From Patescibacteria group bacterium (lineage in GTDB: Bacteria; Patescibacteriota; Patescibacteriia; Veblenbacterales; UBA10138): DNA of 56,213 nt. The notes beneath the pieces are model-generated. The model did no database searches. It saw only the letters and a list, made by a program, of their open reading frames with translations, and had not been told where the DNA came from. The stretch covers positions 1 to 56,213 of the forward strand of contig JBDRTU010000048.1 of assembly GCA_043823825.1 (NCBI GenBank), read 5' to 3'. The stretch's first letter is position 1, and the number at the start of each line of letters is the position of its first letter. Made by a program: the position numbers and the translations under genes. Shown one piece after another: positions 482-37,840 of the stretch.

Positions 482-567
482 TCTAATTTATGGTAATTGT
501 CATTTAATATACTTGTAATTTACCTTATTTTCTGTTAAAAATAAAGCACAACTTAATGTGGCCTAAA

Positions 568-728
568 CCCGGCTTTCGCTGGGCATGGCTCAAAAACCTG
601 CTACAGGATAAGGAGCTCGTCGTCAGAGCACCTGTAGCGGGTCATATCGGGAAACCGGTATGGGTGGCGAAAGCCATCACTGGCGGCGAGTATTTGTTTT
701 TCGCCAGCAAGAAAGGCCCGCTACAGGC
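568..728 (+). ncRNA. unclassified structured RNA (four-way junction, two GAAA tetraloop hairpins, alternative helix)
   Basis: About 58% G+C by my count, within AT-rich flanks. An 11-bp perfect closing helix (631-641/717-727) encloses hairpins 643-662 (GAAA loop), 663-678 (GAAA loop) and 680-707, plus hairpin 568-583. Three G-U pairs (571-580, 647-658, 664-677) exist only on the + strand. No known Rfam core recognised. Confidence 0.5.
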
Positions 729-3800: not shown

Positions 3801-6348
3801 AGTAACAGTTAGTGTTGGTTCTACTTACAATGATGCTGGTGCCACCGCTTTAGATAACTATGACGGCGATATAACTAGTGACATTATTGTAGTTAATCCT
3901 GTTAATGAGGCTGTACGTGGTACATACATAGTGACATACAACGTTACTGATTCATCTGGTAATAATGCTGATCAGGTTACCAGAACAGTGAATGTGGTTG
4001 ATGACATTGCGCCAGTGATTACAATTGTTGGTTTTAATCCTGTTTCGCAACTTGCTGGCCAAGATTATATAGATGCCGGCGCCGTGGCCTCGGATAACTA
4101 CGATGGCGATTTAACCACAAACATAATTACGGTAAATACCGTTGATGCCAATACCGTTGGTACTTATTCGGTAACTTATAATGTTACTGACTCATCTGGT
4201 AACGCGGCCATAGAAGCGGTTAGAACAGTGAATATTACGGACGCCACAACACCAATAATTACATTATTAGGCGATAATCCAGCCACAGTTGAAGTTGATA
4301 CTGTATATACTGATGCGGGAGCCACCGCCCTAGATGATATTGATGGCGATATAACAGGCAGCATTGTGGTAGTAAGTAATGTAGACACTAGTATCTTAGG
4401 TTCATATACTGTGACCTACAATGTTTCTGATGCCGCTGGAAATCCAGCCCCAGAGGTTGTTCGAACAGTGAATGTTATTGATACCACACAACCGGTTATT
4501 AGTTTGTTAGGTAATAATCCAGAGAATACGGAAATTGGTTATGTGTATGTAGATGCCGGAGCCACTGCGACTGATAATTACGATGGGGATATAACTGGTA
4601 GTGTTGTGGTAGTGAACAATGTTAATACCAGTATTGCTGGGGCGTATACAGTAACATATAATGTAACCGATTCTTCAAATAACTCTGCCACAGAAGTCAC
4701 GAGAACTGTTAATGTTTCACCAGATGAAACGGCCCCTGTAATTACTATGAATGGTGGCGATATGAATATTTATAAAGGTACTGTTTATGACGACCCAGGC
4801 GCCACTGCTGTAGATAATATTGATGGGGATATTACGGGTAGTATAGTAATCGTTGGTGTGGCGGCTGTTGATACAAATACCCCCGGAGTGTATATAGTCA
4901 CATATAATGTACCTGATGCAGCTGGAAATAGTGCCACAGAAGCGACAAGAACAGTTACTGTTTTAGAAGTCCTGGATGGTCAGGTCGTACTAGGCCCTAG
5001 CATAATTGTAGATACTGATAACCAAGAGATTTTAGTCGGCCATAATATGCCCGATAATTCTAATATCAATATTCCATTAACCGAGACTGGTTCAAAATTA
5101 GATGTGTCGGCACTACTAGTAGGTTCTAACCCAAAGACAGCATCTATATCTGGAGCAATAAACGTCAGCGCACAAACAAATGTTGGTGCAGTATTCATTC
5201 AAATACCACAGAATACTCAAATTAGTGCTGGGGCAGCTTGGAATGGATTAATCAATTTACCTCAGATTCAAGAAAATTCTTCCGTTACAGTCGTGCCGGA
5301 GGCTAATAATACTGCTAGCGTTTCGTCGGTAATTGAAATAGGATTTAGTGATGTAATGTTGAGTTTTGACAAAGCTGTTCGCATTACATTAGCTGGACAA
5401 GCTGGTAGATATGTTGGTTATTCACAGGGAGGGGTATTTACTCAAATAACAGATGTTTGTTCAGCCGACACACAGCAGGTGGGGAATAGTCTAGCGACTA
5501 ATGGTAATTGTAAAATCACTGATGGTTCAGACTTAATTATATGGACCAAGCATTTCACTAAATTCGTAACATATACCCAAACCGCCATTTCGTCCGGCGG
5601 GGGAGGCGGAGGCGGTGGTGGAGGTGGAGGGGGCGGTGGTTCGTACGTACCACCTACACAAGCGGTAAACCAACCAGTAGTTAATGACCCATTAACCCAA
5701 AGGGCGCCACAGGTATTGGGTGTGCAGCAAGAAAATTTAACTGCTATTGTAACCACTGAGGAAAAGGAATTACTTGGTAAAATTGATGTAAATCTAGTTA
5801 AACGCCTAGCTGGTCGTGTTCTGTTGCAGGTAGAAAGGCTTGGTCAGGCCTGGTATCTTGATCCGTTATCACTCAAGAAATATTATTTAGCAGACGGCCT
5901 AAATGCCTTCACAGCTCTTCGTAAGTTTGGCTTAGGTATTACTAACGCTGACCTTGCAAAAATACCTGTTGGCCACGAATCACGCTTCCAAATGGTTGAC
6001 ACCGACAAAGATGGCCTGCCTGACAAACTAGAGGAAGCGCTGGGTACTGATGTAGATAATGTGGATACTGATAGTGACGGCGTAAATGATGGGGTAGAAG
6101 TTCTTACTAACAACACCAATCCATTAGGCGTAGGTAAATTGGCTTACTCTTCTTCGCTAGCTAACCGTCTCAAGGGTCGCATCCTTTTGCAAGTAGAATC
6201 ACGTGGTGAAGCCTGGTATGTGAGTCCAGTAGATGGTAAACGTTATTACATGAATACCGGCGAAGCTGCGTACCAGATTATGCGTTATCTATCCCTTGGT
6301 ATTACAAATACTGACATCCGTAAGGTCCCTGTGGGAGATTTGGAGTAA
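895..6348 (+). CDS. giant secreted S8 (subtilisin-like) serine protease with Ig-like repeats and Ca-binding C-terminus
   Basis: ORF track, 1817 aa. Signal peptide (MNMLRKSLITIAGAVLVLN...ALA). Subtilase triad motifs GVISDGVD (Asp), SHVAAV (His) and GTSAAAPHIAAIVA (Ser). Six Ig-like repeats of about 80 aa. 15-Gly linker (5596-5640). The C-terminus has two LLQVExxGxAWY modules flanking DxDxDG thrombospondin-type-3 repeats. Confidence 0.9.
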   Translation: MNMLRKSLITIAGAVLVLNTTYTPLSALALSDEPKVNLQMEQYNKEHTVNYPTLSENNFNKDGLSTPKKKLATDLLRLIDSSFLLPTQSRAQIISDMKVQKQFIASNDSVTGIDKRVINKTHNDLVYVYVNLKSNTLTSTIDSLAWKVLDRDEDNNLVAALVEVNKLEALASLSGVQSVSSVLAPITNTGSAITEGDIIHQTDDVRSTYSQSGAGIKIGVISDGVDNIASSKSSGDLPAGVTVLSNSLGGDEGTAMLEIIYDMVPSASLYFHDAGSNIIAFNSAIDDLVAAGANVIVDDVFWIGEPFFEDGTIASHVAAVLAANNIVYVSVAGNNALKHYQGDYYNDGNDYHDFSRGAAPTFKYLYVNIPNNGTVTSILQWNDSFGLSGNDYDLLMYNFSSGSLITGSAAIQDGDDDPIEGFSYTNTSGGTITAMIMASNYLGAAATRTLELFIYSGNGASNYLDNITPNDSIFGHSAVPGVIAAGAIAASDPGNDNIEPFSSQGPVTIIGQGQRAKPDIAGIDCVSVTGVGGFTTPFCGTSAAAPHIAAIVAQLWAQYPSATSNQVRNHVLNTAVDLGTTGTDNIFGHGRADSLLSFQSSPAITAFSFTSPAAIGIINEAEHTITATVPNGTVVTALVPTIVITGASVNPLSGTAQDFTNPVTYTATTTSGLAQDYVVTVTVNTDPDIVAVAADKTALVDDSIKGSNPDLLNITVALTNPLPSLGDNGSVIAWESDTPSVVSNDGQTINRPAFENGDATVTLTATLTKGVVTDTKIFNLTVLKLPLPDLTAPILAEIIPVATPTNDTTPDYTFSSDEEGSIQYIGSCSGGTTSAVVGNNDIVFNELTQGTYADCAITVTDVSTNVSDPLVVSSFIIDTAAPVITLVGDVVIEVVVNTGYVDAGATAIDNVDSTVAVITDNPVADSTIGSYVVTYTATDIAGNPATPVTRTVNVVDNIAPVITLLGNAEVTVSVGSTYNDAGATALDNYDGDITSDIIVVNPVNEAVRGTYIVTYNVTDSSGNNADQVTRTVNVVDDIAPVITIVGFNPVSQLAGQDYIDAGAVASDNYDGDLTTNIITVNTVDANTVGTYSVTYNVTDSSGNAAIEAVRTVNITDATTPIITLLGDNPATVEVDTVYTDAGATALDDIDGDITGSIVVVSNVDTSILGSYTVTYNVSDAAGNPAPEVVRTVNVIDTTQPVISLLGNNPENTEIGYVYVDAGATATDNYDGDITGSVVVVNNVNTSIAGAYTVTYNVTDSSNNSATEVTRTVNVSPDETAPVITMNGGDMNIYKGTVYDDPGATAVDNIDGDITGSIVIVGVAAVDTNTPGVYIVTYNVPDAAGNSATEATRTVTVLEVLDGQVVLGPSIIVDTDNQEILVGHNMPDNSNINIPLTETGSKLDVSALLVGSNPKTASISGAINVSAQTNVGAVFIQIPQNTQISAGAAWNGLINLPQIQENSSVTVVPEANNTASVSSVIEIGFSDVMLSFDKAVRITLAGQAGRYVGYSQGGVFTQITDVCSADTQQVGNSLATNGNCKITDGSDLIIWTKHFTKFVTYTQTAISSGGGGGGGGGGGGGGGSYVPPTQAVNQPVVNDPLTQRAPQVLGVQQENLTAIVTTEEKELLGKIDVNLVKRLAGRVLLQVERLGQAWYLDPLSLKKYYLADGLNAFTALRKFGLGITNADLAKIPVGHESRFQMVDTDKDGLPDKLEEALGTDVDNVDTDSDGVNDGVEVLTNNTNPLGVGKLAYSSSLANRLKGRILLQVESRGEAWYVSPVDGKRYYMNTGEAAYQIMRYLSLGITNTDIRKVPVGDLE
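3532..4968 (+). repeat. six tandem ~240-nt coding repeats (bacterial Ig-like, DUF5011/HYR-like) inside the protease gene
   Basis: The protein unit APVITLLG..(Y)xDAGATAxDNxDGDIT..V..V....GTYxVTYNVTDSSGN.....RTVNV recurs six times back to back. Confidence 0.8.
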
Positions 6349-10973: not shown

Positions 10974-11108
10974 GCACGGCCGGCCGGTGGGGCTTCTATA
11001 GGGCAGAGTTGAGCTCTTATGATTGTTCCGTACAGGTGGTGCCGCTGGTCGGAGTCCCCACCTACACCAAAGGCTTCAGCTGGCAGGGAACCGTACGAAT
11101 AGATTTTA

Positions 11109-11195
11109 TGGTGCCGGAGGAGAGACTCGAACTCTCAATCCCTTGCGGGAACGGGTTTTTGAGACCCGCGTGTATACCGATTCCACCACTCCGGC
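11109..11195 (-). tRNA. tRNA-Leu(CAA), type II with long variable arm, CCA encoded
   Basis: Hand-folded cloverleaf: GCCGGAG/CUCCGGC acceptor, anticodon stem CGGGU/ACCCG with loop CUCAAAA, variable arm CCC-GCAA-GGG, T arm GAGAG-UUCGAGU-CUCUC, then ACCA. Confidence 0.9.
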
Positions 11196-21744: not shown

Positions 21745-21904
21745 CCATTAGCTTCTACTTACTAGCGGTTATAATATCGCGACCCCTCCTTAGCGAGAAA
21801 TGGCCTGCAAAGATAAGGTTAGCTGGTTTTCCAGGTAATCTTAACGCTAGTAAGTAGAAGCTAGTAGGTGATCCCTTAAACTGCAGGGCTTTAAGGGTTT
21901 TTTT
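21745..21904 (+). ncRNA. candidate stand-alone sRNA with long closing stem, C-rich anti-SD loop and intrinsic terminator
   Basis: Perfect 19-bp stem 21749-21767/21845-21863, extended by a U-G pair only on the + strand. Internal hairpin UCGC-GACCCCUCCUUA-GCGA. Terminator 21873-21897 followed by seven T. Possible promoters are an extended -10 TGgTAGAAT (21691-21699) or TTGACT-17-TAAGGT (21686-21714). The element is antisense in orientation to the flanking pth and mfd genes. Confidence 0.5.
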
Positions 21905-21907
21905 GTT

Positions 21908-23789: not shown

Positions 23790-25136
23790 TTAAGGTAAAA
23801 CTTTAACTTTATCTTGCCCTAAAATAATTAAAAAATCTTCCTGTTGGCGCTGCTCTTCACTATTTTCTGTTTGAGAAAGCTCTAAAAGTTCAAGAATCGC
23901 TTGAGCGCTGGCTGGTTTTGTCTTATTAGTAAAATCATAAACCAAAGTGTTTTGGTAATCTTTGCTTTCAGCATTACCATAACTTATTACTTGTAAGCCG
24001 TGTTCAGTTAGTAAGGCTGCTATTTGCTGAGCTAAGCCGGGCATACTAGTGCCGTTTTCAATAATAATAGTTGCCCGTTCACTACGCGCCGTAGCATAAG
24101 CTAATAAATCACTGGCGAAGAGTTGTAGTTCGCGATAATCACCACCGCGCGGCACTAAGAAATAAGCGCCATCTTCTCCGCGAGCTTCACGCAAAAGATT
24201 ACTGGTTTCAATGTCGAGTACCTGATGAACGACTTGATTCGTATTAACCTCTTTAAAAATGTTAGATAATTTGATTACTTCCCAAGGTTCCAAATTAGTT
24301 TCAATATTTTCTTGGAAGGTGTTATAGAGTTTAACTAAAAGTCTGGGATTAAGAAAGGTAGACAATTTAAGCAATTTTTCTTTTAGAGCAATTAAAACTT
24401 GTTGTTGGCGGCGTGAACGCGCAAAATCAGTACCCTGCCAATTGCTGCCATGTCGTGAGCGTACATATTCTAACACCCTTTCCCCCGACATTAATTGTTC
24501 ACCTTCCTCAAAACTAATAGTGCGAGTTAAACTCTCGGTAGTTGGATATTGCGGGTCGGTGAAAGCGCGTTCCACCTTGATTTTTAGCCCGCCCAGCTGA
24601 TTAATTAGTCCTATAAAACCATTAAAGTCAATGCGTACATAATAATGGATGGGGAGGGCTAGAGTATTAGCTATTACCGTACTGGCTAACAAGGCTCCGC
24701 TGCCAGGTTCTTTAGCTTCACCATAAGCATTAGCGCTATTAATTTTCCTAATGCCATTGCCAGGTATGGTGACTGCCAAGTCACGGGGAATCGACAATAA
24801 TCCTAGGTCGGCTGTTTGCGGATTAAGACTAGCTACAATAATTGTATCAGTTAAGTATGGTCCTTCGTGAGCCACACCACCCATACCTAATAACACCATA
24901 TTGATACGACCATCAACTTCGCCGCGTAATTGTTTATCAGGGCTACCAGTCAAACGTTTAATATTTTCCCAAACACTGTGTTGCTGCCAATCGGCAAAAG
25001 TGGCTTGTACTTGAGGCTGACGTGACCACCAGGTCAATAACAGCAATACCACAATCAAGAGGAGGTACAAAAAAAATTTCCCCCGGTTGGTTGCTTGTGG
25101 AGTAGGAGGAACGGTCGTTTCAGGGAGTAGGGCCAT
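23790..25136 (-). CDS. LytR-CpsA-Psr (LCP) family cell-envelope phosphotransferase
   Basis: 448 aa. N-terminal TM helix. Motifs NMVLLGMGG, TDTIIVASLNP and LLSIPRDL. Confidence 0.85.
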   Translation of the reverse strand: MALLPETTVPPTPQATNRGKFFLYLLLIVVLLLLTWWSRQPQVQATFADWQQHSVWENIKRLTGSPDKQLRGEVDGRINMVLLGMGGVAHEGPYLTDTIIVASLNPQTADLGLLSIPRDLAVTIPGNGIRKINSANAYGEAKEPGSGALLASTVIANTLALPIHYYVRIDFNGFIGLINQLGGLKIKVERAFTDPQYPTTESLTRTISFEEGEQLMSGERVLEYVRSRHGSNWQGTDFARSRRQQQVLIALKEKLLKLSTFLNPRLLVKLYNTFQENIETNLEPWEVIKLSNIFKEVNTNQVVHQVLDIETSNLLREARGEDGAYFLVPRGGDYRELQLFASDLLAYATARSERATIIIENGTSMPGLAQQIAALLTEHGLQVISYGNAESKDYQNTLVYDFTNKTKPASAQAILELLELSQTENSEEQRQQEDFLIILGQDKVKVLP

Positions 25137-25257
25137 AGCGTATCTTTACAGATAGGTAGTTAGATGGTAACATTGGCTTTACTTAACTGTCAATTCTTTT
25201 TAAACAAGGGATCTTTTAAGTATTAATCGTGACTAGAAAAAGAGGTCTTAATTTTAA

Positions 25258-25504
25258 GGATGATTAGCTCAGCTGGTTAGAGCGCTGCATTTTCACCCCG
25301 CACCTTCAGATTGAAACTAAGCTAATTAATAGATTTTTGTCTCCGGATGCGTAGCTCAGTTGGTTAGAGCGTTCCGTTCACATCGGAGAGGTCAGAGGTT
25401 CGAGTCCTCTCGCATCCACCATAATTAAAAGAATTGAGCAGGTAATGAAGGTGCGGGGCAGGTTGCAGAGGTCGTCCCGATTTGTATCGGGGCATCATCC
25501 ACCA
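25258..25504 (+). tRNA. interrupted tRNA-like gene (colinear anticodon UUC) split in the anticodon loop by 167 nt that contain tRNA-Val
   Basis: 5' part 25258-25295: GGAUGAU-UA-GCUC-AGCUGGUUA-GAGC-G-CUGCA-UUUUCA. 3' part 25463-25504: U-UGCAG-AGGUC-GUCCCGA-UUUGUA-UCGGGGC-AUCAUCC-A-CCA. The acceptor (7/7) and anticodon (5/5) stems are perfectly complementary. The hairpin in the T-arm position is non-canonical (7-bp stem, 6-nt loop, no UUCRA). Confidence 0.45.
25345..25421 (+). tRNA. tRNA-Val(CAC), CCA encoded
   Basis: Hand-folded canonical cloverleaf: GGAUGCG/CGCAUCC acceptor, D arm GCUC-AGUUGGUUA-GAGC, anticodon arm UUCCG-UUCACAU-CGGAG, variable loop AGGUC, T arm AGAGG-UUCGAGU-CCUCU, then ACCA. 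Confidence 0.93.
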
Positions 25505-25648
25505 CTTAAAGCTATCCGCTGGTTGGCGGATCGCCACGTGGAAAGCCGATTAATCTTAATAAGCTAGTTTCACTTAAATCAAAATTTAGTATACAATTAT
25601 TTAGTATAAAGGAACAGAGTTTAGTCGTTTAGTATATCAAGAAACTTT

Positions 25649-26275
25649 ATGTGGAAGAGAAACACTTCACCAGATTTCAGTGGTCAATATAATGAGCCTG
25701 GCGGTATCAAGGCGGCTTTTTTATTTATCTGGGAATTGGTAAAGGTAATTATTATTTCTTTGGCTATTATTTTACCGATTCGTTATTTTTTAGTGCAGCC
25801 TTTTTATGTCAAGGGCGCTTCAATGGAACCAAATTTTCTAGATCATGATTATTTATTGATTGATGAAATATCATACCGTTTGCGTGAACCCGAGCGAGGA
25901 GAAGTAGTGGTTTTTCGTTATCCACGTGATCGATCACAATTTTTTATTAAACGCATTATTGGTCTACCTAATGAACAGCTGGTACTCAAAGACAGTAAAA
26001 TATTTATTGATCAGGGCGATAATAACTTAGTGGAATTACCAGAGCCGTATTTATCTCAGGAATTAATTACTACTGGCGATATTGATGTCTCATTAGGTTT
26101 CAACGAATATTATTTATTAGGTGATAACCGTACTTCCAGTTTGGATTCCCGCAGTTTTGGGACGATCGAACGGAGCGATATGATCGGACGCGCTTGGGTA
26201 CGTGGTTGGCCTTTTGATCGTTGGGCCTGGTTTTCCGTTCCTGATTCTACTAATAATTTTATTGACCTTAATTAA
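25649..26275 (+). CDS. lepB: signal peptidase I
   Basis: 208 aa. TM anchor. S26 motifs GASMEPN, IKRIIGLP and GDNRTSSLDSR. Confidence 0.9.
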   Translation: MWKRNTSPDFSGQYNEPGGIKAAFLFIWELVKVIIISLAIILPIRYFLVQPFYVKGASMEPNFLDHDYLLIDEISYRLREPERGEVVVFRYPRDRSQFFIKRIIGLPNEQLVLKDSKIFIDQGDNNLVELPEPYLSQELITTGDIDVSLGFNEYYLLGDNRTSSLDSRSFGTIERSDMIGRAWVRGWPFDRWAWFSVPDSTNNFIDLN

Positions 26276-28540: not shown

Positions 28541-31500
28541 ATGTCTCAAAATAAATTATCATCGAAATTTTTAAAACTGACTTCGGGCAGTATAATTATT
28601 GTGGCCTTAGTAGTTGTCTGCTGGCCTGTAGTGGCATCAGCGCAAACCGCTGGCGGTTTAACTAACTTTGCTGGTGAGACTAGTTTAGGTACGCAAGTGG
28701 AGTTAATCAGCACAGTGGCCCGGATTATAAATATTGTTTTAGGTATTTTGGGAGTAATAGCCATTGGCATAATTTTATATGGGGGTTTCTTATGGTTAAG
28801 TTCTCGCGGTAATCAAGAGCAAATTGCCAAAGCAAAAAAAGTTTTAGCCAACGGCTTAATTGGCTTGGTGATTATTCTTACTTCGTTCGCCATTGCTAGT
28901 TTTGTTTTTGGAAAGTTGTATGAAGCAACTGGCGGTCCCAATGCTTGTGCGGTTCCGCCCTGCAACCCGCCGCCACCAAATTTCGGCAGTGATTATTTAA
29001 AAACCAAATGGGTGCAACCAACCAGGGAAAATGTTAAGTTATGTTTTGCGCCACAGGCTGGCTTTAATTATGAGGTTAAAAGTTCTTCACCTGTTAATCA
29101 AGATACTTTCCGCGTTGAAGACGAGGCTGGAAATTTGTTTTATGACGCCGCGTTTGATAGTTATTATCCAGGCGCGGCTGATCCCAATGACGATGTGATC
29201 AGTTTTACCCATCAAGATCATGAGTTTGCCGAAAATACTATTTATACTGTGACACTGCAAAGTTTGACTGGGTATGATCCGCTACGGGCCAAGGATATTT
29301 TTTCCAAAGTGCCATTAATAAAACGATGGAGTTTTAAAACCGGCACTGAATCTGATAATACTGCGCCCGAGGTAGTGCTGCCTACTCAACCTAAAACAAA
29401 CGAAACTGATGTTTGCCGCAAAACGCCTATTCAGGTGGAATTTAACGAGCCAATGCTTACCACCAGCTTTAAGGTTAACGATCCAGCCGCCACGGTAAAA
29501 TTGGAAAAAATAAATGGCTGGAATGGGGCTGTGTTGTCAAACATCACTTTAACTGATCCAAGTTTTGGTCATGATCTGCAAATAGTAACTGTGGCGGCCA
29601 CTACTACTTTAGAGGAAAATGCTTTTTATAAAGTAACCTTGATCGGCGGCATTAATGGCATTAAAGATGCTTGCTCAATTCCATTAGAAAATGACTATGT
29701 TTGGGAGTTTCAAACTGGTACCACAATAAATTGCGAACCAACTATTACCGATGTTGCTCCTATGAAAGGTGATTATAGCGACCATATAAGTGTTAAAGGC
29801 ACTAACTTCTTTAAAGATGGCGAAGTATATTTTAATGATTTTGCTTCGGGCAACAGCAGTTTTGACGGCGAGTCTAATATTCTTTGCTGGAACAGCACCA
29901 GCCGCGACAATGTTACCGCATGTGCCAATAACGAAATCATAGTGCGCGTGCCAGTAGGAGCTACTACTGGACCGGCTTATGACCAAGATGGTTATACTGT
30001 AAGTACAGGTCCAATACAAGTAAAAGTGGATCGTTTTTGGTCTAATAAGTGGACTGGCTTTATTATTGGCAGTCCTTTTATTGGTGAGCTTTCGCCTGGG
30101 CGGGGTGGTGTAGGGCAATACCTAACCATTAGTGGCTGGAATTTTGGCAATGCCGAGGGCGTGGTTTATTTTATTGACTCCAATGGCAATCAAGTTGTGG
30201 CTGAACAGCCGCTTGGTTGTGATGACTGGTGGCAAGAAACAGAGATTGTGGTAAAAGTGCCAGCTGTTTTAGCCGGCCAATTTTACGAAGTGCAGGTGGT
30301 AACTGCCTTAGGCGGCACCAATGCCGGGAATAAGCCAAGCAATACGGAATATTTTAACGTAACAGCTGATCCGCCCGGACCGGGTATTTGCGAACTTAAT
30401 CCTGTTAGTGAAGATATTTTAAATTTGCCAGTGGATATTACAGTTAAGGGCGAACGATTTGGGGCGGCGCCTGGCAAACTTACTTTTGAAACAATTGAGG
30501 CGACTAAGTTTAATCTCCCTGATTATAAATGGACAGCTGGCGAAATTATGAGCCAAACTCCTTTAGTAACTGGTGTTAACGCTTTAGGCAAGGGTGATTG
30601 GCGCGTGCGAGTTACAAGCGGCGGCAAGACTTCTAATTTTAAAAAATTCAGAGTCACTGATATTACAGGCGTTACTGACAATCGGCCGCCCGAAGTAGTG
30701 GATTACCAGTTATGTTCTGCTAATACTCAAAGCCCAAGCCCTTATTACAATACTGAAAATGCTTGTACTAACGCTTTAGTGTCCGCGCGTTTTACTGAAG
30801 TAATGGATGAAACCACTATTGATCTTAATGCCATAGAATTACAAAAGTGCAATAACACGGTTAATTTTGATCCTTTGGCTTGCGCTATTGTTGTTTTGAA
30901 TAATTTAGAATATTTAAGAAATAGCATAAATCAGGTGATTGGTTTTACTGTTAAGCCTGTTCCCGCATTGGAATCTAATTATTGGTACGAAGCAACAATT
31001 AAAAACACTGTTACCAGTTTGGTTGGTCTTTCTATGGTAGCTGATTACACTTGGCACTGGCGAGTTGGGCCAGGTGTTTGTCCAGTAAATAAAGTAATAT
31101 TATCACCCTCTAGTGCTAATTTAGCAGCGGTTGGGGATACGCAAGATTTTAATGCTAACGCTATAGCTACTAATTGTAATATTCTTGAACCCGCCAGTTT
31201 AACTTGGGCTTGGGATTATGGCAATGATCCAGTATCTGATCCGCCGCCACCGGATAGAATTGAGATCAACCAGGCGGTGGCACCTAATCCCAACGCTAAT
31301 AAGTTGTCAATTACAGCTTTAGCTGAAACAGTTAATGGACCGGCTTTTGTTAATGCTGAAACTGAAAACAAAAAAAGCGATGATGCTGATGTTTATGTGG
31401 GCGGCGGTCTGGGCGGAGGGGGGTGCGCCGCGGCAGGGCCGCCAGTAATTACTGATATGAAACCTGTAAATGGCAGGGCAGAAAGCAAAGTAACTACAGT

Positions 31501-34500
31501 TGTTACTATCACGGGCAGGAATTTTGATTGTTCTGGCAGTGTGTATTTTGGCAGTGTTAAAGCCGTTCAAGCCATGTGTGGCAGTTGGGGTCCTAATACA
31601 ATTGTGGTAGCTGCGCCGGTTTTAGCAGCTGGTCAGCATAATGTTAGTGTAGAAACCAGACTAGGCTTATCCACTACTGCTACAGATGCTGACGCGATTC
31701 AGCCAATATTTACTGCTAATAATATTATTCGTCCTGGTATTTGTTCTTTGATGCCAAACCGCGGTCCTGAAGGAACTCGGGTTTCAATTAAAGGATATAA
31801 TTTTACTGATACGCCTCCTCCTACTCCAGTAAACTTTAATACAAGCGCAGTATTTTTTCCTAAATTAGGTACTTTATCACACGTGATACATGATTATACT
31901 AAGTGGTCAAATAAAGAAATAGTATTTAATGTGCCTCCTCCCAGAAGCGGTAAGGCTTGGGTACAAGTTGATTATGGCGCAGCAGGCGGAGGGCTTCGAA
32001 AATCTAATGAAGTGGATTATTACGGTAATCCATATATTACAGATATTATTCCTAGCACTGGTCCAGCCGGCACTTGGGTGACTATCAGGGGTGGAAATTT
32101 TGGAGATTGCTTGAATTTAGGGGTGGCGGTTGGCCAATTGTGTACTGTGGCTTTTACCGATAGCAGTGGCGCGGAAACTTTGTCTGACCCGTTGCCTAGC
32201 GCATGTTTGGCTGAAGATATTTGGACAGATAGAGAAATAATAGTTAAAGTGCCAGATTTTGGCGGTACGCAATTTGATAGTACCGTAACTGTTTATAACG
32301 ATGATCCACCAGCTCTTTCAGTGACTGCTGATAAAAAATTTGATTATAATCCTAATCTACCTTTGGCGCCGGGTTTATGTTCGCTTGCGCCAGATACAGT
32401 AAAGCCGGCTGGTCTACTACCAGAGCCAGCACTACCAGAACCAATTACTTTGAAAGGTGATGGGTTTAGTGCTATTAATAGGCAAATTAATTTTTCTAAT
32501 AAAACTAATTTAATTCCTGTAAACTGGATTGACGATGCTCAAGCTTCTGTTACCGCACCAAATGACACAGAATCTGGTGATGTGACAGTTCAAAAGATAG
32601 TTACTATAAAAGTAGAAAAGTGCAATGGTGTGATGATAGGGGGTATCTGTATTGGTTTTTGGAGTGAGGAAAATAATGATGTAACAGTAATTAGTAATCC
32701 CAAATATTTTACCGTAGGTACAACTACTACCACACCAGGTGATTTGAGAGTAACTGATTTTGTGCCGCTTGATGGGGATACTAACATTTGCCGCAATACG
32801 GCTTTGTCAGCAGTTTTTAATAAGTTAGTTGATAAGAATTCTATTTCATCAACTAATGTTCGTTTAATAGGATCTTTTAATAATTTAGTTTCTAATTCCA
32901 GTTTTGAGAACGTGCTGGGTATTGAGTGGGATACGCCGGTCTGCGCCTCTCGCTCTAATATTAGAGCAAACAGCGGCAGTTGGAGTTTGAATCCTTGTAT
33001 GATTCCTACTACCCAGATTGTTAATGGTTTAACAGTTGGGAAGAAATATCAGGCAAGTGTTTATTGGTGGGCGCAAGGGAATGTTGATTTTTCTGTAGTT
33101 GATCAAAACGGGGAAATAGCCAAAGTGAATGATAACGGCGCAGTTAACGAATGGAGGCGGTTAGAGCTTTCTTTTGTTGCTGCTAGCGAAACAGTTACTT
33201 TAGAATTAATAGAATATGCTGGAAATGCTTTTTTTGACGATGTTGAATTAATACTTTATCCAGAAGTAGTTGGCTCAATAAAACTCGTAAATGATAATAC
33301 GGGAATAAGTAAGTTAAATTTTGTACCAAACGAGCCACTAGAAGGCAATACGCTTTATCGCTTTCGTTTAGGAAATGATTTAAAAGGAAAAGATAGTTCC
33401 TTAATTAATTGTACTATGGCGCCTGGTTGTGAAGTTTCTTTCACTACTGGTTCTTATATTTGTCAGCTGGCGCAAGTTACTATAACACCGCCGCAACGTC
33501 TTTTTAGAAAAGTGTCGGAAAGTCAAGATTTTGAAGCCAAGGCCCTGGCGCCTGATGGGAAAGAGTTAGCGGCCAACTTCACTTGGCAAGAAAAAGATAC
33601 AGCTAATGTGATCACAGTTACTTCACCATTGGATACTAGCATTGTTAGTGTTGAACCCACTGTGACGCTGGCAGAGCCAAATGGAAAAAATGGGCAGGCG
33701 ACCATGACTGTAACAGCTAATGCGGGCGTGGCTGGCACCAAGAGCGCCTCGGCCGAGGTAGAAGTGTTTATTTGCGAAGATCCTTTTATTTATCAAGATA
33801 GCGATTATAATTTTGAATTTAAGTATTGCGTGGCTAAAGTATTAGGCGGACTAACTTTACCTAGGTTATCTGCACCGGTGGTGCGAGATTTGGTAATTAA
33901 TCCCGAATCAAACGATCCTGATTTATTAAAAGAGATATTATTTAATGTGGAGGATGCCGAAGACATTATTGGCTTGCGGATTTATACTAACCTTAATCGT
34001 TTAACTCCCGCGGACTGGCTCAAGAATAAGCCACAAGGCAGCTCAGCCACGATTAGTAGTTTTACAATTGATGGTTACGAAGCGGGTCAAGGCGGGCAAA
34101 CTGTTTATATAACAGCGCCAAATGTTACGGCCGGAGGCAATATTTGGCTTAATGAATATTTACTGTCTTATAATACCAACGCCCGCGCAGATAGCCAGAC
34201 TATTTATAATGAGTTAAAAAACAGTTGGCAGTTTAATACTAATCTGGCAAGTGTTACTAGCAAACAGCAAATGCGTGCTGATTTACAGCGTTTGACCGAC
34301 CTAAATACAATGCGCGAGATTTTTGATCGCTATGCAGTGTTACATAATTACACTGTGCCGCAGTTGCCAGCTGGCAGTTACGTGCCTGGTTTTTCTACCA
34401 GCAAATGGAATTCCTGGCAGCAGACTTTAAGCAGTACTTTGGGTAGAAATCTGCCCAAAGATCCAATTAATAAGTTGGTTAATTGCGAAGGCAATGTGGG

Positions 34501-37500
34501 CGCAACTTGTGCTGATAACGCCGATTGCGATTCCGGTAATTGTAAAGCTGATTCTACTTGCAGCAGCACTGGCTATGATGCTCAAACTTGCTGGAATGAG
34601 CAAACTAAAGATTTTCTCTGCCCTGCTGGTTCTTATATTTATCGTTATCGGGTTATGGATCAGCAAACCGCTCGGCTTTATTTCACAGCAGAGTTTGATA
34701 ATGGCGGATTGGGTGTTACCTGGAAAGGCAGTCCGGAAATAACTGTTCCCACTTTACCCATTGACGCAAACGACCAGTGTCAGGCGATTCAACCCCAAGT
34801 TTGGCAAGAAGTAAAATACAAAGATCCGCCTTTAACCATCAATCGCACTGGTTCAGGCTTAGTAGCATCTCAAGACTTAAAGATAAATTGCGGCGGTGCT
34901 TGTAATGCGATTTATAATGAGGGCGAAGAAGTTAAACTTACTGCCACGCCAGCTGCTGGTTTTCATTTTAATTCTTGGAGCGGCGATTGTATTCTTCCCG
35001 TCGTTGGCACTAATTGTACCGTGCAAATGGCAGGCGATCAGGAGGTCGGAGCCTTGTTCAGTGCCAGTACATATACTCTAAGTATAACTAAAGATGGCGA
35101 GGGTACAGTTTTAAGCGATCCAGCAGGTATTGATTGCAGTGATAATTGCACTTCGACGTCAGCCAGTTATACGGGCGGTCCCTGGGTTACTTTAACAGCA
35201 ACACCCGAACTAGGGTATGTTTTTGCCGGCTGGGGCGGCAGTTGCATGGGCACAGGAGATTGCGCGGTTATTATGGGCAGTAATAAAACCGTGGGCGCAA
35301 AGTTTTTACCAGTTGAAACTTTATCAGTTACCAAAGTAGGTACTGGCAGTGTAATGAGCTTGCCAGCTGGCATTAACTGCGGCGCAGATTGCGATTATGA
35401 TTATGTGGAAGATACCAGCGTTACATTAACAGCAGTGGCAGGAGTCGGATTCCAGTTTACTGGCTGGGAGGTTAATGGTTCTGATACTGTTTGTTCTGAT
35501 ATTGGTTCTTGCATTGTTATAATGGATGACGCCAAGGCCGTTAAAGCGACTTTTGAGGTAGTAATTGTAAATTATAAATTAACTGTGGTTCGATCCGGCA
35601 CCGGCACTGGCTTGGTAACTGGTGGTGCGCCGGCCGGCATTGATTGCGGCGCTGACTGCAATGAAATTTATCAAGAAGGAACTAATATTTCACTGATTGC
35701 TTCAGCCGGCATTGGTTCGGAATTTACTGGTTGGTTGGTTAATGGTCAAGATGCGGTTTGCCCAGGATTGGGTGATTGTAGCCTGACTATGGATGGCGTA
35801 AAAACTGTCACGGCCAGTTTTAAACCAAAAGAGTTTGAATTAGAGGTGAGCATAATTGGCACCAGCGGCCGTGTTACTTCTGACCCAATAGGCATTGATT
35901 GCGATAATAACGTTGGTGACTGTACTAAAAACTTTATTTACGGACAAACTATTACTTTGACGCCAATAGCAGTTAATCCTAATGTTTTTGTGGGCTGGGG
36001 TGGCGATGTTAACTGCGGCGGGGTAGGCATCTGCACTATTACCATGACTAAAGATCTTGTAGTAACTGCGAAGTTTGATCAGGTTTATAAACTTGCGTTA
36101 GAAAAAGCAGGTGATGGTAGCGGCAAAGTAACCAGTAACCCTTTGGGGCGCTCAGGCGGCATTGATTGCGGCGATACTTGTGAAGACGAATTTATTGTTG
36201 ATGATTCTTTAACTTTAGTGGCCAGCGCTTATGCTGGCTCGGAATTTGCCGGCTGGAAAGTTAAGGTTAATAATATCGTTGTTGCGGCTTGCGGCCTTCC
36301 ATTGTTGGGTGATTGCGATCTTCAGCCTAATAATACTAACCCAGTCACAGTTGAAGCCACTTTTAATCACGTGAATGTTTCTTACCAATTAAAGGTAATT
36401 CCTGCTGGCAGTGGCAAAGGCGTAGTAACCAGCGATCCTTCTGGCATTGATTGCGGAAACGGCCAGCTTAGCTGTATTGCTTTTTATAAGGAGGATACTG
36501 TTATCACTTTGACGGCTGCGCCTGCAGGTGGCTCGGTTTTTACTAGCTGGAGCGGCGATACCACTTGCGGCGCTAATAATCCCTGCCAGCTAACAATGAA
36601 TGGTAAAAAAGAAGTAACCGCTACTTTTACTGCCAGTAATTTTAGTTTAACTGTAGTAAATGCTGGCGGAGGATTGGTTACTAGCGACGTACCCGGCATT
36701 AGTTGCCAGCCTACCTGCAATGCCAGTTATGCGAGCGGCAGCATGGTTACTTTAACAGCGCAACAAAACCTAGGTTACACTTTTGATGGTTGGCAGGGAT
36801 CTGGCTGCTTTGGCATAGGTTTGTGTCAGATTAATATTATTAATAACAATAAAACAGTAGCAGCTTTATTTAGTCAAAATACTTATACTCTTAATGTAGA
36901 AAAACTGGGTCTGGGCAGTGGTACTATTAAAAGCGACGACACTCGCGTTGATATGAATTGTAATCCTAATTGCGGCATAGTCAGCCTTGTTTATGTCGGC
37001 AACAGCAATGTTATCTTAACCGCTACTGCTTTGCCAGGCTCTAATTTTACTGGATGGCAGAATTGCACTTCTAACCCTGCTCCTAACAGCTGTCAAGTGA
37101 CGATGAGTAGTAACAAAACAGTAAAAGCGACTTTTGATATAGCTGCGCCAGTCACTCATACTTTAACAGTGAATCCGCCTCCTGTTAATGGCACTATTAC
37201 TGGGGCGGGCATTAACTGCCCGGGCGATTGCACTGAAACTACAGCTGCCCCTTCCATTGCTCTAACTGCCAACCCGGCGGCTGGTTATAAATTAAAACAG
37301 TGGTTGGGTGACGCAGCTGCCTGTGGTGCAAATCCTAACTGCACAGTTCAGCTTACCATAGACAAAACCGTGAGCGCTGAATTTGAGGTTGCAGTCGTGA
37401 CCCATACCTATAGCATGGTGGCTGGTTGGAATTTTATTTCTTTGCCTTTTGAAGTAGCAGATGGAACTTGGAATGTCTTGTTTCCGACTGCGATTGATAA

Positions 37501-37840
37501 ACCGCAAAAGTTTTATAATAGCAAGTATACTCAAGTGGATAATCTTGAGGTCGGGTTTGCCTACTTTATAAAATTTAATAATGATCAAAATGTAACTATT
37601 GCTGCTGCCGCTACAATTTCAGATTTTTCTTTACCTATGGCTGCAGGGACGAGTGGTTTTGGCTCGTTGTCTACATCAGTACCAATTAGCGCTATAACAT
37701 TTACCCCAGGTATAATTGGTAATTTGAAATACTTCGACCTCTCCACAGGGGGTTTTGTTGGTGGCGTAACCCAAATTGATCCAGGTGTTGGTTATACAGG
37801 TAATGCAAGTGAGGCAGGAACTTTGACAATAACCAAGTAA
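28541..37840 (+). CDS. 3099-aa mosaic surface protein with VirB2/TrbC-pilin-like N-terminus, SbsA-Ig, IPT/TIG, CBM-like, Big_2, pilin-like globular and InlB-B-repeat-like domains
   Basis: A single uninterrupted ORF. The N-terminal 125 aa are a signal-like segment plus two hydrophobic helices separated by a charged loop (SSRGNQEQIAKAKK). There are about 7 IPT/TIG-like units (e.g. ITDVAPMKGDYSDHISVKGTNF), a CBM_4_9-like segment (SSFENVLG...FFDDVELIL), a pilin-like segment (LTDLNTMREIFDRYAVLHNYTVPQLPAGSY...DPINKL) and ten Cys-containing repeats at the C-terminal end. Confidence 0.9.
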   Translation: MSQNKLSSKFLKLTSGSIIIVALVVVCWPVVASAQTAGGLTNFAGETSLGTQVELISTVARIINIVLGILGVIAIGIILYGGFLWLSSRGNQEQIAKAKKVLANGLIGLVIILTSFAIASFVFGKLYEATGGPNACAVPPCNPPPPNFGSDYLKTKWVQPTRENVKLCFAPQAGFNYEVKSSSPVNQDTFRVEDEAGNLFYDAAFDSYYPGAADPNDDVISFTHQDHEFAENTIYTVTLQSLTGYDPLRAKDIFSKVPLIKRWSFKTGTESDNTAPEVVLPTQPKTNETDVCRKTPIQVEFNEPMLTTSFKVNDPAATVKLEKINGWNGAVLSNITLTDPSFGHDLQIVTVAATTTLEENAFYKVTLIGGINGIKDACSIPLENDYVWEFQTGTTINCEPTITDVAPMKGDYSDHISVKGTNFFKDGEVYFNDFASGNSSFDGESNILCWNSTSRDNVTACANNEIIVRVPVGATTGPAYDQDGYTVSTGPIQVKVDRFWSNKWTGFIIGSPFIGELSPGRGGVGQYLTISGWNFGNAEGVVYFIDSNGNQVVAEQPLGCDDWWQETEIVVKVPAVLAGQFYEVQVVTALGGTNAGNKPSNTEYFNVTADPPGPGICELNPVSEDILNLPVDITVKGERFGAAPGKLTFETIEATKFNLPDYKWTAGEIMSQTPLVTGVNALGKGDWRVRVTSGGKTSNFKKFRVTDITGVTDNRPPEVVDYQLCSANTQSPSPYYNTENACTNALVSARFTEVMDETTIDLNAIELQKCNNTVNFDPLACAIVVLNNLEYLRNSINQVIGFTVKPVPALESNYWYEATIKNTVTSLVGLSMVADYTWHWRVGPGVCPVNKVILSPSSANLAAVGDTQDFNANAIATNCNILEPASLTWAWDYGNDPVSDPPPPDRIEINQAVAPNPNANKLSITALAETVNGPAFVNAETENKKSDDADVYVGGGLGGGGCAAAGPPVITDMKPVNGRAESKVTTVVTITGRNFDCSGSVYFGSVKAVQAMCGSWGPNTIVVAAPVLAAGQHNVSVETRLGLSTTATDADAIQPIFTANNIIRPGICSLMPNRGPEGTRVSIKGYNFTDTPPPTPVNFNTSAVFFPKLGTLSHVIHDYTKWSNKEIVFNVPPPRSGKAWVQVDYGAAGGGLRKSNEVDYYGNPYITDIIPSTGPAGTWVTIRGGNFGDCLNLGVAVGQLCTVAFTDSSGAETLSDPLPSACLAEDIWTDREIIVKVPDFGGTQFDSTVTVYNDDPPALSVTADKKFDYNPNLPLAPGLCSLAPDTVKPAGLLPEPALPEPITLKGDGFSAINRQINFSNKTNLIPVNWIDDAQASVTAPNDTESGDVTVQKIVTIKVEKCNGVMIGGICIGFWSEENNDVTVISNPKYFTVGTTTTTPGDLRVTDFVPLDGDTNICRNTALSAVFNKLVDKNSISSTNVRLIGSFNNLVSNSSFENVLGIEWDTPVCASRSNIRANSGSWSLNPCMIPTTQIVNGLTVGKKYQASVYWWAQGNVDFSVVDQNGEIAKVNDNGAVNEWRRLELSFVAASETVTLELIEYAGNAFFDDVELILYPEVVGSIKLVNDNTGISKLNFVPNEPLEGNTLYRFRLGNDLKGKDSSLINCTMAPGCEVSFTTGSYICQLAQVTITPPQRLFRKVSESQDFEAKALAPDGKELAANFTWQEKDTANVITVTSPLDTSIVSVEPTVTLAEPNGKNGQATMTVTANAGVAGTKSASAEVEVFICEDPFIYQDSDYNFEFKYCVAKVLGGLTLPRLSAPVVRDLVINPESNDPDLLKEILFNVEDAEDIIGLRIYTNLNRLTPADWLKNKPQGSSATISSFTIDGYEAGQGGQTVYITAPNVTAGGNIWLNEYLLSYNTNARADSQTIYNELKNSWQFNTNLASVTSKQQMRADLQRLTDLNTMREIFDRYAVLHNYTVPQLPAGSYVPGFSTSKWNSWQQTLSSTLGRNLPKDPINKLVNCEGNVGATCADNADCDSGNCKADSTCSSTGYDAQTCWNEQTKDFLCPAGSYIYRYRVMDQQTARLYFTAEFDNGGLGVTWKGSPEITVPTLPIDANDQCQAIQPQVWQEVKYKDPPLTINRTGSGLVASQDLKINCGGACNAIYNEGEEVKLTATPAAGFHFNSWSGDCILPVVGTNCTVQMAGDQEVGALFSASTYTLSITKDGEGTVLSDPAGIDCSDNCTSTSASYTGGPWVTLTATPELGYVFAGWGGSCMGTGDCAVIMGSNKTVGAKFLPVETLSVTKVGTGSVMSLPAGINCGADCDYDYVEDTSVTLTAVAGVGFQFTGWEVNGSDTVCSDIGSCIVIMDDAKAVKATFEVVIVNYKLTVVRSGTGTGLVTGGAPAGIDCGADCNEIYQEGTNISLIASAGIGSEFTGWLVNGQDAVCPGLGDCSLTMDGVKTVTASFKPKEFELEVSIIGTSGRVTSDPIGIDCDNNVGDCTKNFIYGQTITLTPIAVNPNVFVGWGGDVNCGGVGICTITMTKDLVVTAKFDQVYKLALEKAGDGSGKVTSNPLGRSGGIDCGDTCEDEFIVDDSLTLVASAYAGSEFAGWKVKVNNIVVAACGLPLLGDCDLQPNNTNPVTVEATFNHVNVSYQLKVIPAGSGKGVVTSDPSGIDCGNGQLSCIAFYKEDTVITLTAAPAGGSVFTSWSGDTTCGANNPCQLTMNGKKEVTATFTASNFSLTVVNAGGGLVTSDVPGISCQPTCNASYASGSMVTLTAQQNLGYTFDGWQGSGCFGIGLCQINIINNNKTVAALFSQNTYTLNVEKLGLGSGTIKSDDTRVDMNCNPNCGIVSLVYVGNSNVILTATALPGSNFTGWQNCTSNPAPNSCQVTMSSNKTVKATFDIAAPVTHTLTVNPPPVNGTITGAGINCPGDCTETTAAPSIALTANPAAGYKLKQWLGDAAACGANPNCTVQLTIDKTVSAEFEVAVVTHTYSMVAGWNFISLPFEVADGTWNVLFPTAIDKPQKFYNSKYTQVDNLEVGFAYFIKFNNDQNVTIAAAATISDFSLPMAAGTSGFGSLSTSVPISAITFTPGIIGNLKYFDLSTGGFVGGVTQIDPGVGYTGNASEAGTLTITK
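34826..37390 (+). repeat. ten tandem ~80-aa coding repeats (divergent InlB B-repeat-like)
   Basis: The recurring unit is Y(T/K)L.V...G.G.V(T/S)S.P.GIDCG..C...Y..G..VTLTA.P..G..F.GW.G.C.G...C.V.M...K.V.A.F. Confidence 0.75.

Follow-up and report, generated by a model that had tools for sequence, protein, structure and literature searches.

The 56,213-nucleotide contig JBDRTU010000048.1 of the Patescibacteria assembly GCA_043823825.1 (hereafter the window, meaning the whole of this stretch) contains an intact tRNA-Val(CAC) gene, here called the inner gene, which lies within a 167-nt insert that divides a second, non-canonical tRNA gene, here called the outer gene, at the 37/38 boundary in its anticodon loop. 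Comparison with about 160 related loci in bacteria that belong to the candidate phyla radiation (CPR), taken from genomes and metagenomes and denoted by L-numbers, makes it likely that a resident tRNA-Val(CAC) gene was killed by a promoter-less cassette bounded by inverted repeats and carrying its own replacement for the gene it entered, that the relic of the resident gene is decaying, and that the locus is a hotspot of tRNA-Val turnover. An earlier note, made from the sequence of the window alone, had proposed among its readings either an intron-like or split-tRNA processing arrangement or a repeat-bounded element that carried a tRNA into a tRNA gene and killed it. The second of these is favoured by the existence of uninterrupted orthologues and by the lack of conservation of the outer halves. 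The note did not contain the further point that many CPR lineages have genes nested at this 37/38 junction, so that more is involved than a single dead gene.

The inner gene is evidently the only functional-looking member of the pair. Its score with the Rfam tRNA model is 69 bits, compared to a gathering score of 29 (E = 5e-13), ARAGORN agrees in calling it Val(cac), and it displays the cloverleaf and the conserved D and T loops of a canonical bacterial tRNA, as the earlier note had recognized in placing a complete tRNA-Val with its own CCA at this position. Removal of the surrounding cassette leaves a canonical seven-nucleotide loop (TTTTCA+T) in the outer gene. The cassette ends in GC-rich inverted repeats (CCCCGCACC...GGTGCGGGG-CAGG); the perfect pairing of these ends, like the length and position of the insert, had been reported correctly, but the terminal helix comprises 13 bp rather than the 12 bp originally given. 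The 56-kb window has no more than six distinct perfect inverted repeats that reach 12 bp and whose arms lie within 200 nt, and overlapping 12-mer inverted-repeat hits number 17, compared to a mean of 1.1 in first-order Markov simulations; the terminal repeats exceed chance expectation. No promoter is visible in the cassette and it contains no open reading frame (ORF), so its small size, its perfect terminal repeats and its lack of a transposase gene are those of a miniature inverted-repeat transposable element (MITE), while the target-site duplication of such an element is absent, the flanks being TTCA and CAGG/TTGC. The CAGG tail that follows the right arm is also found in L081 and L286, and related tails are found in L013 (CAAG) and L088 (CGAG).

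Over their first 34 nt the inner and outer genes are 82% identical, mostly at universal D-arm bases, and they differ in the acceptor, the anticodon stem and the T arm, and the inner gene did not, on this evidence, arise from the outer one by recent copying. Its closest match among the tRNAs of the data set, identical at 68/77 positions, comes from a distant lineage. Part of the spacer that precedes the inner gene (CTAAGCTAAT, 25317-25326) is 90% complementary to the 5' motif ATTAGCTCAG of the outer tRNA, and an imperfect 14-nt direct repeat, TAATTAATAGATTT (25323-25336) and TAATTAAAAGAATT (25422-25435), brackets the inner tRNA within the cassette; these two features hint at an older and more complex history of the cassette.

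The outer segments described in the earlier note are confirmed as halves of one tRNA gene by a match of the 5' half to positions 1-38 of a tRNA-Val profile (E = 4.7e-07) and by comparison with L003 and L084, where the syntenic position is occupied by an intact tRNA-Val(CAC). Over its first 31 nt the outer gene is identical (31/31) to the gene of both relatives, as are the pieces GCAGAGGTCG and CATCATCCACCA of its 3' half. The acceptor strands are complementary at 7/7 positions and the anticodon-stem strands (CTGCA/TGCAG) at 5/5, as previously described, and the abnormal hairpin reported in the place of the T arm is also real: it replaces the T-arm core CTGGTTCGA(A/G)TCCAG of L003 and L084. The outer gene of L285 is of the same type (GGATGAT...ATCATCC) and its loop is still TTCACA, from which the loop TTTTCA of the window evidently differs by two substitutions, both within the anticodon. 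Because of these identities with L003 and L084 and of the loop found in L285, the outer gene can be recognized as a derivative of tRNA-Val(CAC), and the anticodon UUC (Glu) assigned to it in the earlier note must be given up. ARAGORN, when applied to an artificially spliced sequence, likewise produces tRNA-Glu(UUC), a candidate which was rejected by comparison with the same three loci; in its intron mode the program leaves the outer gene uncalled.

A tRNA-Val(CAC) precedes lepB-hisS in most of the approximately 160 loci, across which ARAGORN makes 66 such calls, and most of the loci are simple. Nested genes or stacks of tRNA-Val fragments are found in about ten lineages of Paceibacteria type: the nested loci are the window, L285, L286, L081, L088, L051, L013 (= L094), L012, L101 and L096, and fragments in which a GC-rich hairpin occupies the D loop, the 37/38 site or the T loop are found in L040, L103, L113, L055 (= L102), L022 and L007. 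In the clade formed by the window, L285, L286 and L081, whose histidyl-tRNA synthetases (HisRS) are 78-90% identical to each other, the locus is nested in all four members, while the outgroups L288, L084 and L003 (HisRS 67-72%) have uninterrupted genes, that of L288 being an intact gene of a different outer type at the same locus. Junctions of the type TTCACA/CCTGCC (the slash marks the junction) are present at seven places in six genomes (L013, L040, L081 twice, L088, L285 and L286), with variants in the window (TTTTCA/CCCCGC) and in L113 (TTCACA/TTTACC). A search of 15 related loci against Rfam returned intact tRNAs only.

The orthologous nested loci L286 and L081 allow the divergence of the two genes to be compared. 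Their inner tRNAs are identical at 76/77 positions (99%), compared to 52% identity for the outer 5' part together with the left repeat and 39%, with indels, for the right repeat together with the outer 3' part; on this comparison the outer gene is evolving under relaxed selection. The earlier note had stated that a functional outer tRNA would be contradicted by uninterrupted relatives combined with an intact paralogue, or by a lack of conservation of the outer halves, and essentially all of this has been found, since the gene is uninterrupted in L003, L084 and L288, the inner gene is an intact CAC copy, and the outer halves have diverged far more than the inner tRNA. The essential strands missing from the relics also differ by lineage: the T arm is lost in the window, the 5' strand of the anticodon stem is missing in L051 and the 3' strand of the acceptor in L286, and in L285 the 5' strand of the T stem is gone, the 3' strand of the anticodon stem has degenerated and two extra hairpins are present in the D arm. 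The clade comparison, the missing strands, the uninterrupted orthologues and the lack of any match to an intron or to a bulge-helix-bulge lead to the conclusion that the outer gene is, to judge from its sequence, a decaying relic. A plainly degenerate tRNA-Val(CAC) pseudogene is found at the syntenic position in L025 (2341-2415; = L108), with no insert and no replacement nearby, and this isoacceptor is therefore expendable in some lineages.

Among loci with an intact tRNA-Val, 4/61 have a flanking helix that reaches 10 bp, compared to 0.8% in mismatched controls. Since it is found at so few of these loci, the helix belongs to the nested state rather than to tRNA-Val generally, and a general leader-trailer helix of tRNA-Val was rejected as an explanation on the same count. 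L285 and L286 (HisRS 90% identical) have conserved flanks, the insert joins the outer gene at A37 in both, and their repeats are one compensatory pair apart (CCTGCC/GGCAGG versus CCTA(T)CC/GGTAGG), while their inner tRNAs show about a dozen differences, with compensatory changes in the stems. These differences, together with the distance of the window's inner tRNA from its nearest relative, indicate that the locus is hypervariable, and repeated invasion, or the exchange of whole alleles among relatives, would fit the pattern better than a single ancient event.

Other insertions are seen at one of the fragment-bearing loci. On the complete Kerfeldbacteria chromosome CP181398.1 (L022, 2960-3092), a near-intact tRNA-Val(CAC) has an insertion of about 63 nt with two hairpins in its D loop, and is followed by an intact tRNA-Val(GAC) and then by a copy of the 3' end of the latter whose T loop holds a hairpin. 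L103 has a homologue of the D-loop insert (TTA/CCCGCCCGAACG...CGGGCGGG/GAGCG).

The repeats that bound the inserts fall into two families. The first, (C/T)CCGCACC...GGTGCGG(GG), is found in the window, L051 and L012, and also in L023/L105 and L103, where AT-rich units of about 100-135 bp with these termini but without a tRNA are present (L023 2347-2482, = L105; L103 1296-1400). The units have inverted repeats of 14-15 bp of the CCCCGCACC type and are flanked by direct repeats, GTTGAC...GTTGAC in L023/L105 and GTCAA...GTCAA in L103, and GTTGAC is the reverse complement of GTCAA(C); the units have the look of MITEs that favour a particular target. The second family, (CCTG)CC(C/T)GCC...GGC(A/G)GG(CAGG), bounds the inserts of L285, L286, L081, L088, L040 and L013. 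In L055 and L286 it is also found collapsed into perfect palindromes, while L081 has the extended form at the orthologous position. Similar termini are found in genomes whose HisRS identity is as low as about 52-55%, which suggests that the termini have spread horizontally or else are recognized by a protein that is conserved. Movement of the cassette by transposition, by site-specific recombination or by whole-allele recombination between relatives is possible; integron attC, Xer/dif and serine-recombinase dinucleotide models were tried, and none fits the junction flanks consistently. A scan of IMG/VR viral contigs for CCCCGCACC...GGTGCGGGG gave about 126 hits, which is near the chance estimate, and none has a tRNA between the arms. 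Six of the contigs (L179, L193, L217, L233, L235 and L237) are AT-rich, some of them coming from giant-virus metagenome-assembled genomes (MAGs), and have long palindromes which contain CCCCGCACC, are flanked by ccaaggtt/aaccttgg, and are seemingly unrelated to the CPR elements.

The sequence of events that would account for these observations starts from a locus with a single tRNA-Val(CAC), the present outer gene. The 167-bp cassette would have entered its anticodon loop exactly between nucleotides 37 and 38, destroying the resident gene and supplying the same isoacceptor in one step, after which the resident gene would have drifted, acquiring two substitutions in the anticodon and a hairpin in place of its T arm. 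Expression of the inner gene would depend on its surroundings. In L051, L013, L088, L285 and L286 only 0-6 nt separate the left arm from the inner tRNA, so that most cassettes have no room there for a promoter, and a promoter-like block upstream of the outer gene (Table 1) is kept in L285, L286 and L288 and partly in L084; from these two facts we infer that the cassette is transcribed from the destroyed gene's own promoter. Transcription from the conserved block would then read through the 5' relic, cleavage by RNase P at the 5' end of the inner tRNA and 3' processing would free the inner tRNA-Val with its CCA already encoded, and the relic halves would be by-products, possibly paired for a short time through the 13-bp helix and the old stems. 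The locus would thus pass from an intact state through an invaded, nested state to relic decay, in a cycle that would be recurrent in this group of CPR bacteria. An excised or circular form of the cassette would join GGTGCGGGGCAGG to CCCCGCACC.

Several observations weigh against this sequence of events. The 13-bp repeat is perfect (26 nt unchanged), yet the adjacent six-nucleotide loop has two changes and the T arm has been replaced, a combination that uniform neutral decay does not predict; the helix may be under selection, for instance as an aid to clean maturation of the inner tRNA; alternatively, the loop changes may have come with the insertion. The acceptor stems of the outer gene are complementary at 7/7 positions in six lineages, and a hairpin in the position of the T arm recurs in the window, L286, L081 and L088, so that there could be some selection on the shape of the by-product. 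The perfect repeat and the recurrent hairpins are the reason that a small probability is retained for a role at the RNA level. The window's cassette lacks a target-site duplication, its repeat is single-copy in the 56 kb, and the 38 ORFs of the window that were scanned against Pfam include no transposase or recombinase, so the argument for mobility is a comparative one. The fragments in L040, L103, L088 and L013a resemble the adjacent intact gene, which local duplication fits equally well, and the co-transcription and processing of the inner and outer genes are putative.

The role at the RNA level would be that of an intervening sequence, with the outer halves ligated, or held together by the helix, after RNase P and RNase Z have released the inner tRNA, so that a second tRNA or tRNA-like molecule is formed. 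It is favoured by the insertion at exactly the canonical 37/38 position in at least eight genomes, by a GC-rich helix that directly abuts the halves as in the split tRNAs of Nanoarchaeum, by the intact acceptor and anticodon stems and retained ACCA of the outer gene, by the acceptance of the spliced outer sequence as a tRNA by ARAGORN, and by the folding of the whole region, which is far better than that of shuffles (z = -4.5). The helix does not, however, form a bulge-helix-bulge, in which a 4-bp helix separates two 3-nt bulges at the junctions of exon and intron: it begins with the first base of the intron and stops 4 nt short of the 3' junction, leaving a 6 x 5 internal loop, and in the bulge-helix-bulge register there are only 2-3 weak pairs and the helix is broken, a geometry that was found by hand in L088, L013 and L286 as well. 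When 25100-25700 was compared with Rfam (E up to 10), neither a group I intron nor a ribozyme model was matched, the matches being the inner tRNA and spurious partial matches to its T arm (HPnc0260, Plastid-ycf2 and permuted tmRNA). Group I introns have a conserved catalytic core (P3-P9) and usually measure 200 nt or more; there is no such core here, and 77 of the 167 nt of the insert are tRNA. An archaeal-type intron should also yield a canonical and conserved spliced tRNA, whereas the outer gene has a non-canonical T arm (7-bp stem, loop UUUGUA), an anticodon mutated from CAC, the strong divergence between orthologues described above and essential strands that are lost differently in different lineages, and has uninterrupted orthologues; no RtcB- or EndA-like gene is found among the 38 scanned ORFs of the window. 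This explanation, which the earlier note had put forward as one of its readings, is extremely unlikely. A broader proposal of the same kind, to which we assign only a very slight chance of being correct, is that a new class of bacterial tRNA intervening sequences exists, in which GC-rich, hairpin-ended units enter tRNA loops (37/38, the D loop at 21/22, the T loop) by reversal of a protein-dependent cleavage and ligation. It implies a CPR pathway for splicing or for two-piece tRNAs, in which excision of the nested tRNA by RNase P and RNase Z takes the place of intron removal and the outer halves are rejoined or held by the helix. Reversed cleavage-ligation has reportedly been proposed before, for the transposition of archaeal introns.

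At the DNA level, the insert could be the trimmed remnant of a phage or plasmid whose integrase recombined attP with the anticodon loop of tRNA-Val without rebuilding the gene, the tRNA-Val of the element being kept after deletions had removed the rest. Crossover in the anticodon loop is classical for tyrosine integrases, whose core sites are inverted repeats. The lack of a target-site duplication is what site-specific recombination predicts. Disruption of a host tRNA with replacement by the same isotype is known for mycobacteriophages (Guerrero-Bustamante and Hatfull 2024, PMC10865867). An origin of this kind is nevertheless decidedly unlikely, as it requires independent and near-complete trimming in many lineages, down to cassettes of 90-170 bp with spacers of 0-6 nt; moreover, the junctions share no common core (TTTTCA versus CAGGT), the scanned ORFs of the window include no integrase remnant, and the viral contigs gave no tRNA-carrying match to the repeat. 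Alternatively, the nested structure could have been generated on the spot, by hairpin-mediated template switching, tandem duplication or gene conversion at a locus rich in palindromes, with REP-like palindromes as seeds. The fragments of L040, L103, L088 and L013a, which often share an anticodon stem or an acceptor with the adjacent intact gene, support such a local rearrangement, as do the collapsed and extended versions of the palindrome at orthologous positions in L286 and L081 and the perfect palindromes of CCTG/CAGG units in L055 and L286. The sequence differences between the inner and outer genes of the window speak against it, as do the distant lineage of the inner gene's nearest relative and the presence of different inner tRNAs between conserved flanks in the closely related L285 and L286, and it is for these reasons an unlikely account of the locus.

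The closest known concept to invasion by a cassette that replaces the gene it destroys is the tRNA-dependent lysogeny of actinobacteriophages, in which a host tRNA is lost upon integration and one of the same isotype is brought in by the element (Guerrero-Bustamante and Hatfull 2024, PMC10865867). Here too a host tRNA gene is disrupted without being rebuilt, and its loss is accompanied by a replacement, the outer Val(CAC) being split and the inner Val(CAC) intact; no integrase, prophage body or common core is present, however, the insert being 167 bp long and free of ORFs, with junction sequences TTTTCA and CAGGT. The phage elements are prophages of 40-60 kb with a tyrosine integrase and attP, whereas the cassette has no protein gene, lies inside the split anticodon loop between the arms of a perfect 13-bp inverted repeat, probably relies on the promoter of the destroyed gene, and is found in a CPR bacterium.

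Likenesses to three further systems are of a more structural kind. In the split tRNAs of Nanoarchaeum equitans and in archaeal introns at 37/38, a bulge-helix-bulge is cut by EndA, the ends are ligated by RtcB and the mature tRNA is essential, and the intron of Haloferax pre-tRNA-Trp encodes a box C/D RNA. The window shares with these the 37/38 position, a GC-rich flanking helix of 12-14 bp and a nested functional RNA, but it has no bulge-helix-bulge, its outer molecule is non-canonical and unconserved, and its nested RNA is a complete tRNA. Bacterial MITEs and palindromic elements such as the Rickettsia palindromic elements, REP/BIME and Correia elements insert into genes, including RNA genes. 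The cassette resembles them in being small and non-coding, in having terminal repeats that fold into a long hairpin, and in having members with direct-repeat flanks elsewhere (L023, L103); it is unlike them in its tRNA cargo, in its recurrence at one target nucleotide of the cognate gene, and in the lack of a target-site duplication in the window copy, and we know of no reported MITE that carries a complete tRNA or that lands recurrently at one nucleotide of a cognate tRNA gene. Group I introns occur in the anticodon loops of bacterial tRNAs (tRNA-Leu, fMet, Arg and Ile), so that the interruption of a bacterial tRNA at this place has a precedent, but the insert has no catalytic core and has a tRNA at its centre. 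A full-text literature search found no account of nested tRNA genes or of tRNA insertions in CPR bacteria.

If invasion by a replacement-carrying cassette is the correct explanation, then a tiny cassette that strikes the anticodon loop of its own cognate tRNA gene can replace that gene on the spot, with a substitute that it carries, in a miniature and protein-less counterpart of the tRNA-dependent lysogeny of phages. This would explain the rapid turnover of tRNA alleles in the genome-reduced CPR bacteria and the stacks of tRNA fragments at the locus. The activity that mobilizes the cassette could conceivably be a new site-specific mechanism. Fragments of this kind will escape annotation pipelines or could be miscalled by them, as the Glu(UUC) assignment illustrates, and the locus offers a bacterial system in which to ask why insertions cluster at 37/38 in all domains, without the assumption of archaeal splicing enzymes.

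Table 1. Features of the nested tRNA-Val locus, in coordinates of the window
Feature	Position	Strand	Basis
Conserved intergenic block upstream of outer gene, candidate divergent promoters	25137..25195	.	consensus scan
Candidate promoter TTTACA-17-TAACAT	25145-25173	+	consensus scan
Candidate promoter TTGACA-18-TACCAT	25193-25164	-	consensus scan
Outer gene (putative relic tRNA-Val), 5' half: acceptor GGATGAT, intact D arm, CTGCA, loop 32-37 TTTTCA	25258..25295	+	profile and orthologues
Insert (cassette), 167 nt, between outer-gene positions 37 and 38	25296..25462	+	comparison with uninterrupted orthologues
Left terminal inverted repeat arm CCCCGCACCTTCA	25296..25308	+	13 nt, 100% complementary to 25446-25458
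AT-rich spacer, left arm to inner tRNA	25309..25344	+	promoter scan: no promoter-like site
Inner intact tRNA-Val(CAC), discriminator A73, encoded CCA	25345..25421	+	ARAGORN, Rfam tRNA model, cloverleaf
Right terminal inverted repeat arm TGAAGGTGCGGGG	25446..25458	+	pairs with left arm
CAGG tail of insert, member of the (CCTG)n...(CAGG)n palindrome family	25459..25462	+	insert ends of relatives
Outer gene (putative relic tRNA-Val), 3' half: T38, TGCAG, variable loop AGGTC, hairpin, ATCATCC, A, CCA	25463..25504	+	comparison with L003 and L084
Hairpin GTCCCGA-TTTGTA-TCGGGGC in place of T arm	25474-25493	+	sequence; 7-bp stem, 6-nt loop

The window is a chromosomal segment of an ultrasmall CPR (Patescibacteria) bacterium, and the nested site lies among housekeeping genes, in the intergenic region between lytR and lepB-hisS, with mfd, pth, der and lytR on one side and lepB, hisS, rpsU and yqeY on the other. 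Among the species-representative genomes searched, the top HisRS match is to a Candidatus Veblenbacteria MAG (72%), and the nearest LepB homologues are 66-68% identical. An exact-protein look-up of the window's LepB and S21 returned no record, and that of Pth returned the identical contig only. The 512-nt intergenic region is 100% identical in L284, a separate assembly (Logan assembly SRR26275509), and the nested arrangement is therefore not an assembly artefact.

Other features of the window were observed in passing. A tRNA-Leu(CAA) gene is present on the - strand at 11109-11195, and its last 8 nt (CGGCACCA) recur about 65 nt downstream (11037-11044) after CCTGCC; the repeated copy may be a residual 3' fragment of an earlier event at tRNA-Leu. 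The region downstream of this gene does not fold better than shuffles (z = -0.25). Between mfd and pth, a perfect 19-bp inverted repeat (TAGCTTCTACTTACTAGCG, 21749-21767 and 21845-21863) encloses about 77 nt, and after it comes a terminator-like hairpin that has a run of T (approximately 21873-21905); this region has no match to an Rfam family, and could be a small structured RNA or a further repeat-bounded element. Directly 3' of rpsU-yqeY lies an ORF of 3099 amino acids (28541-37840, + strand), for which syntenic giant ORFs with T4SS-pilin-like, Big_5 and Flg_new domains are found in L286 and L288, so that this giant surface protein appears to be conserved within the clade. The LOOT RNA motif (Rfam RF03000) is matched over its full length at 560-678 (+ strand), with 92.8 bits compared to a gathering score of 46.4; the match lies just upstream of a subtilase/Ig-domain surface protein of 1817 amino acids (895-6348).

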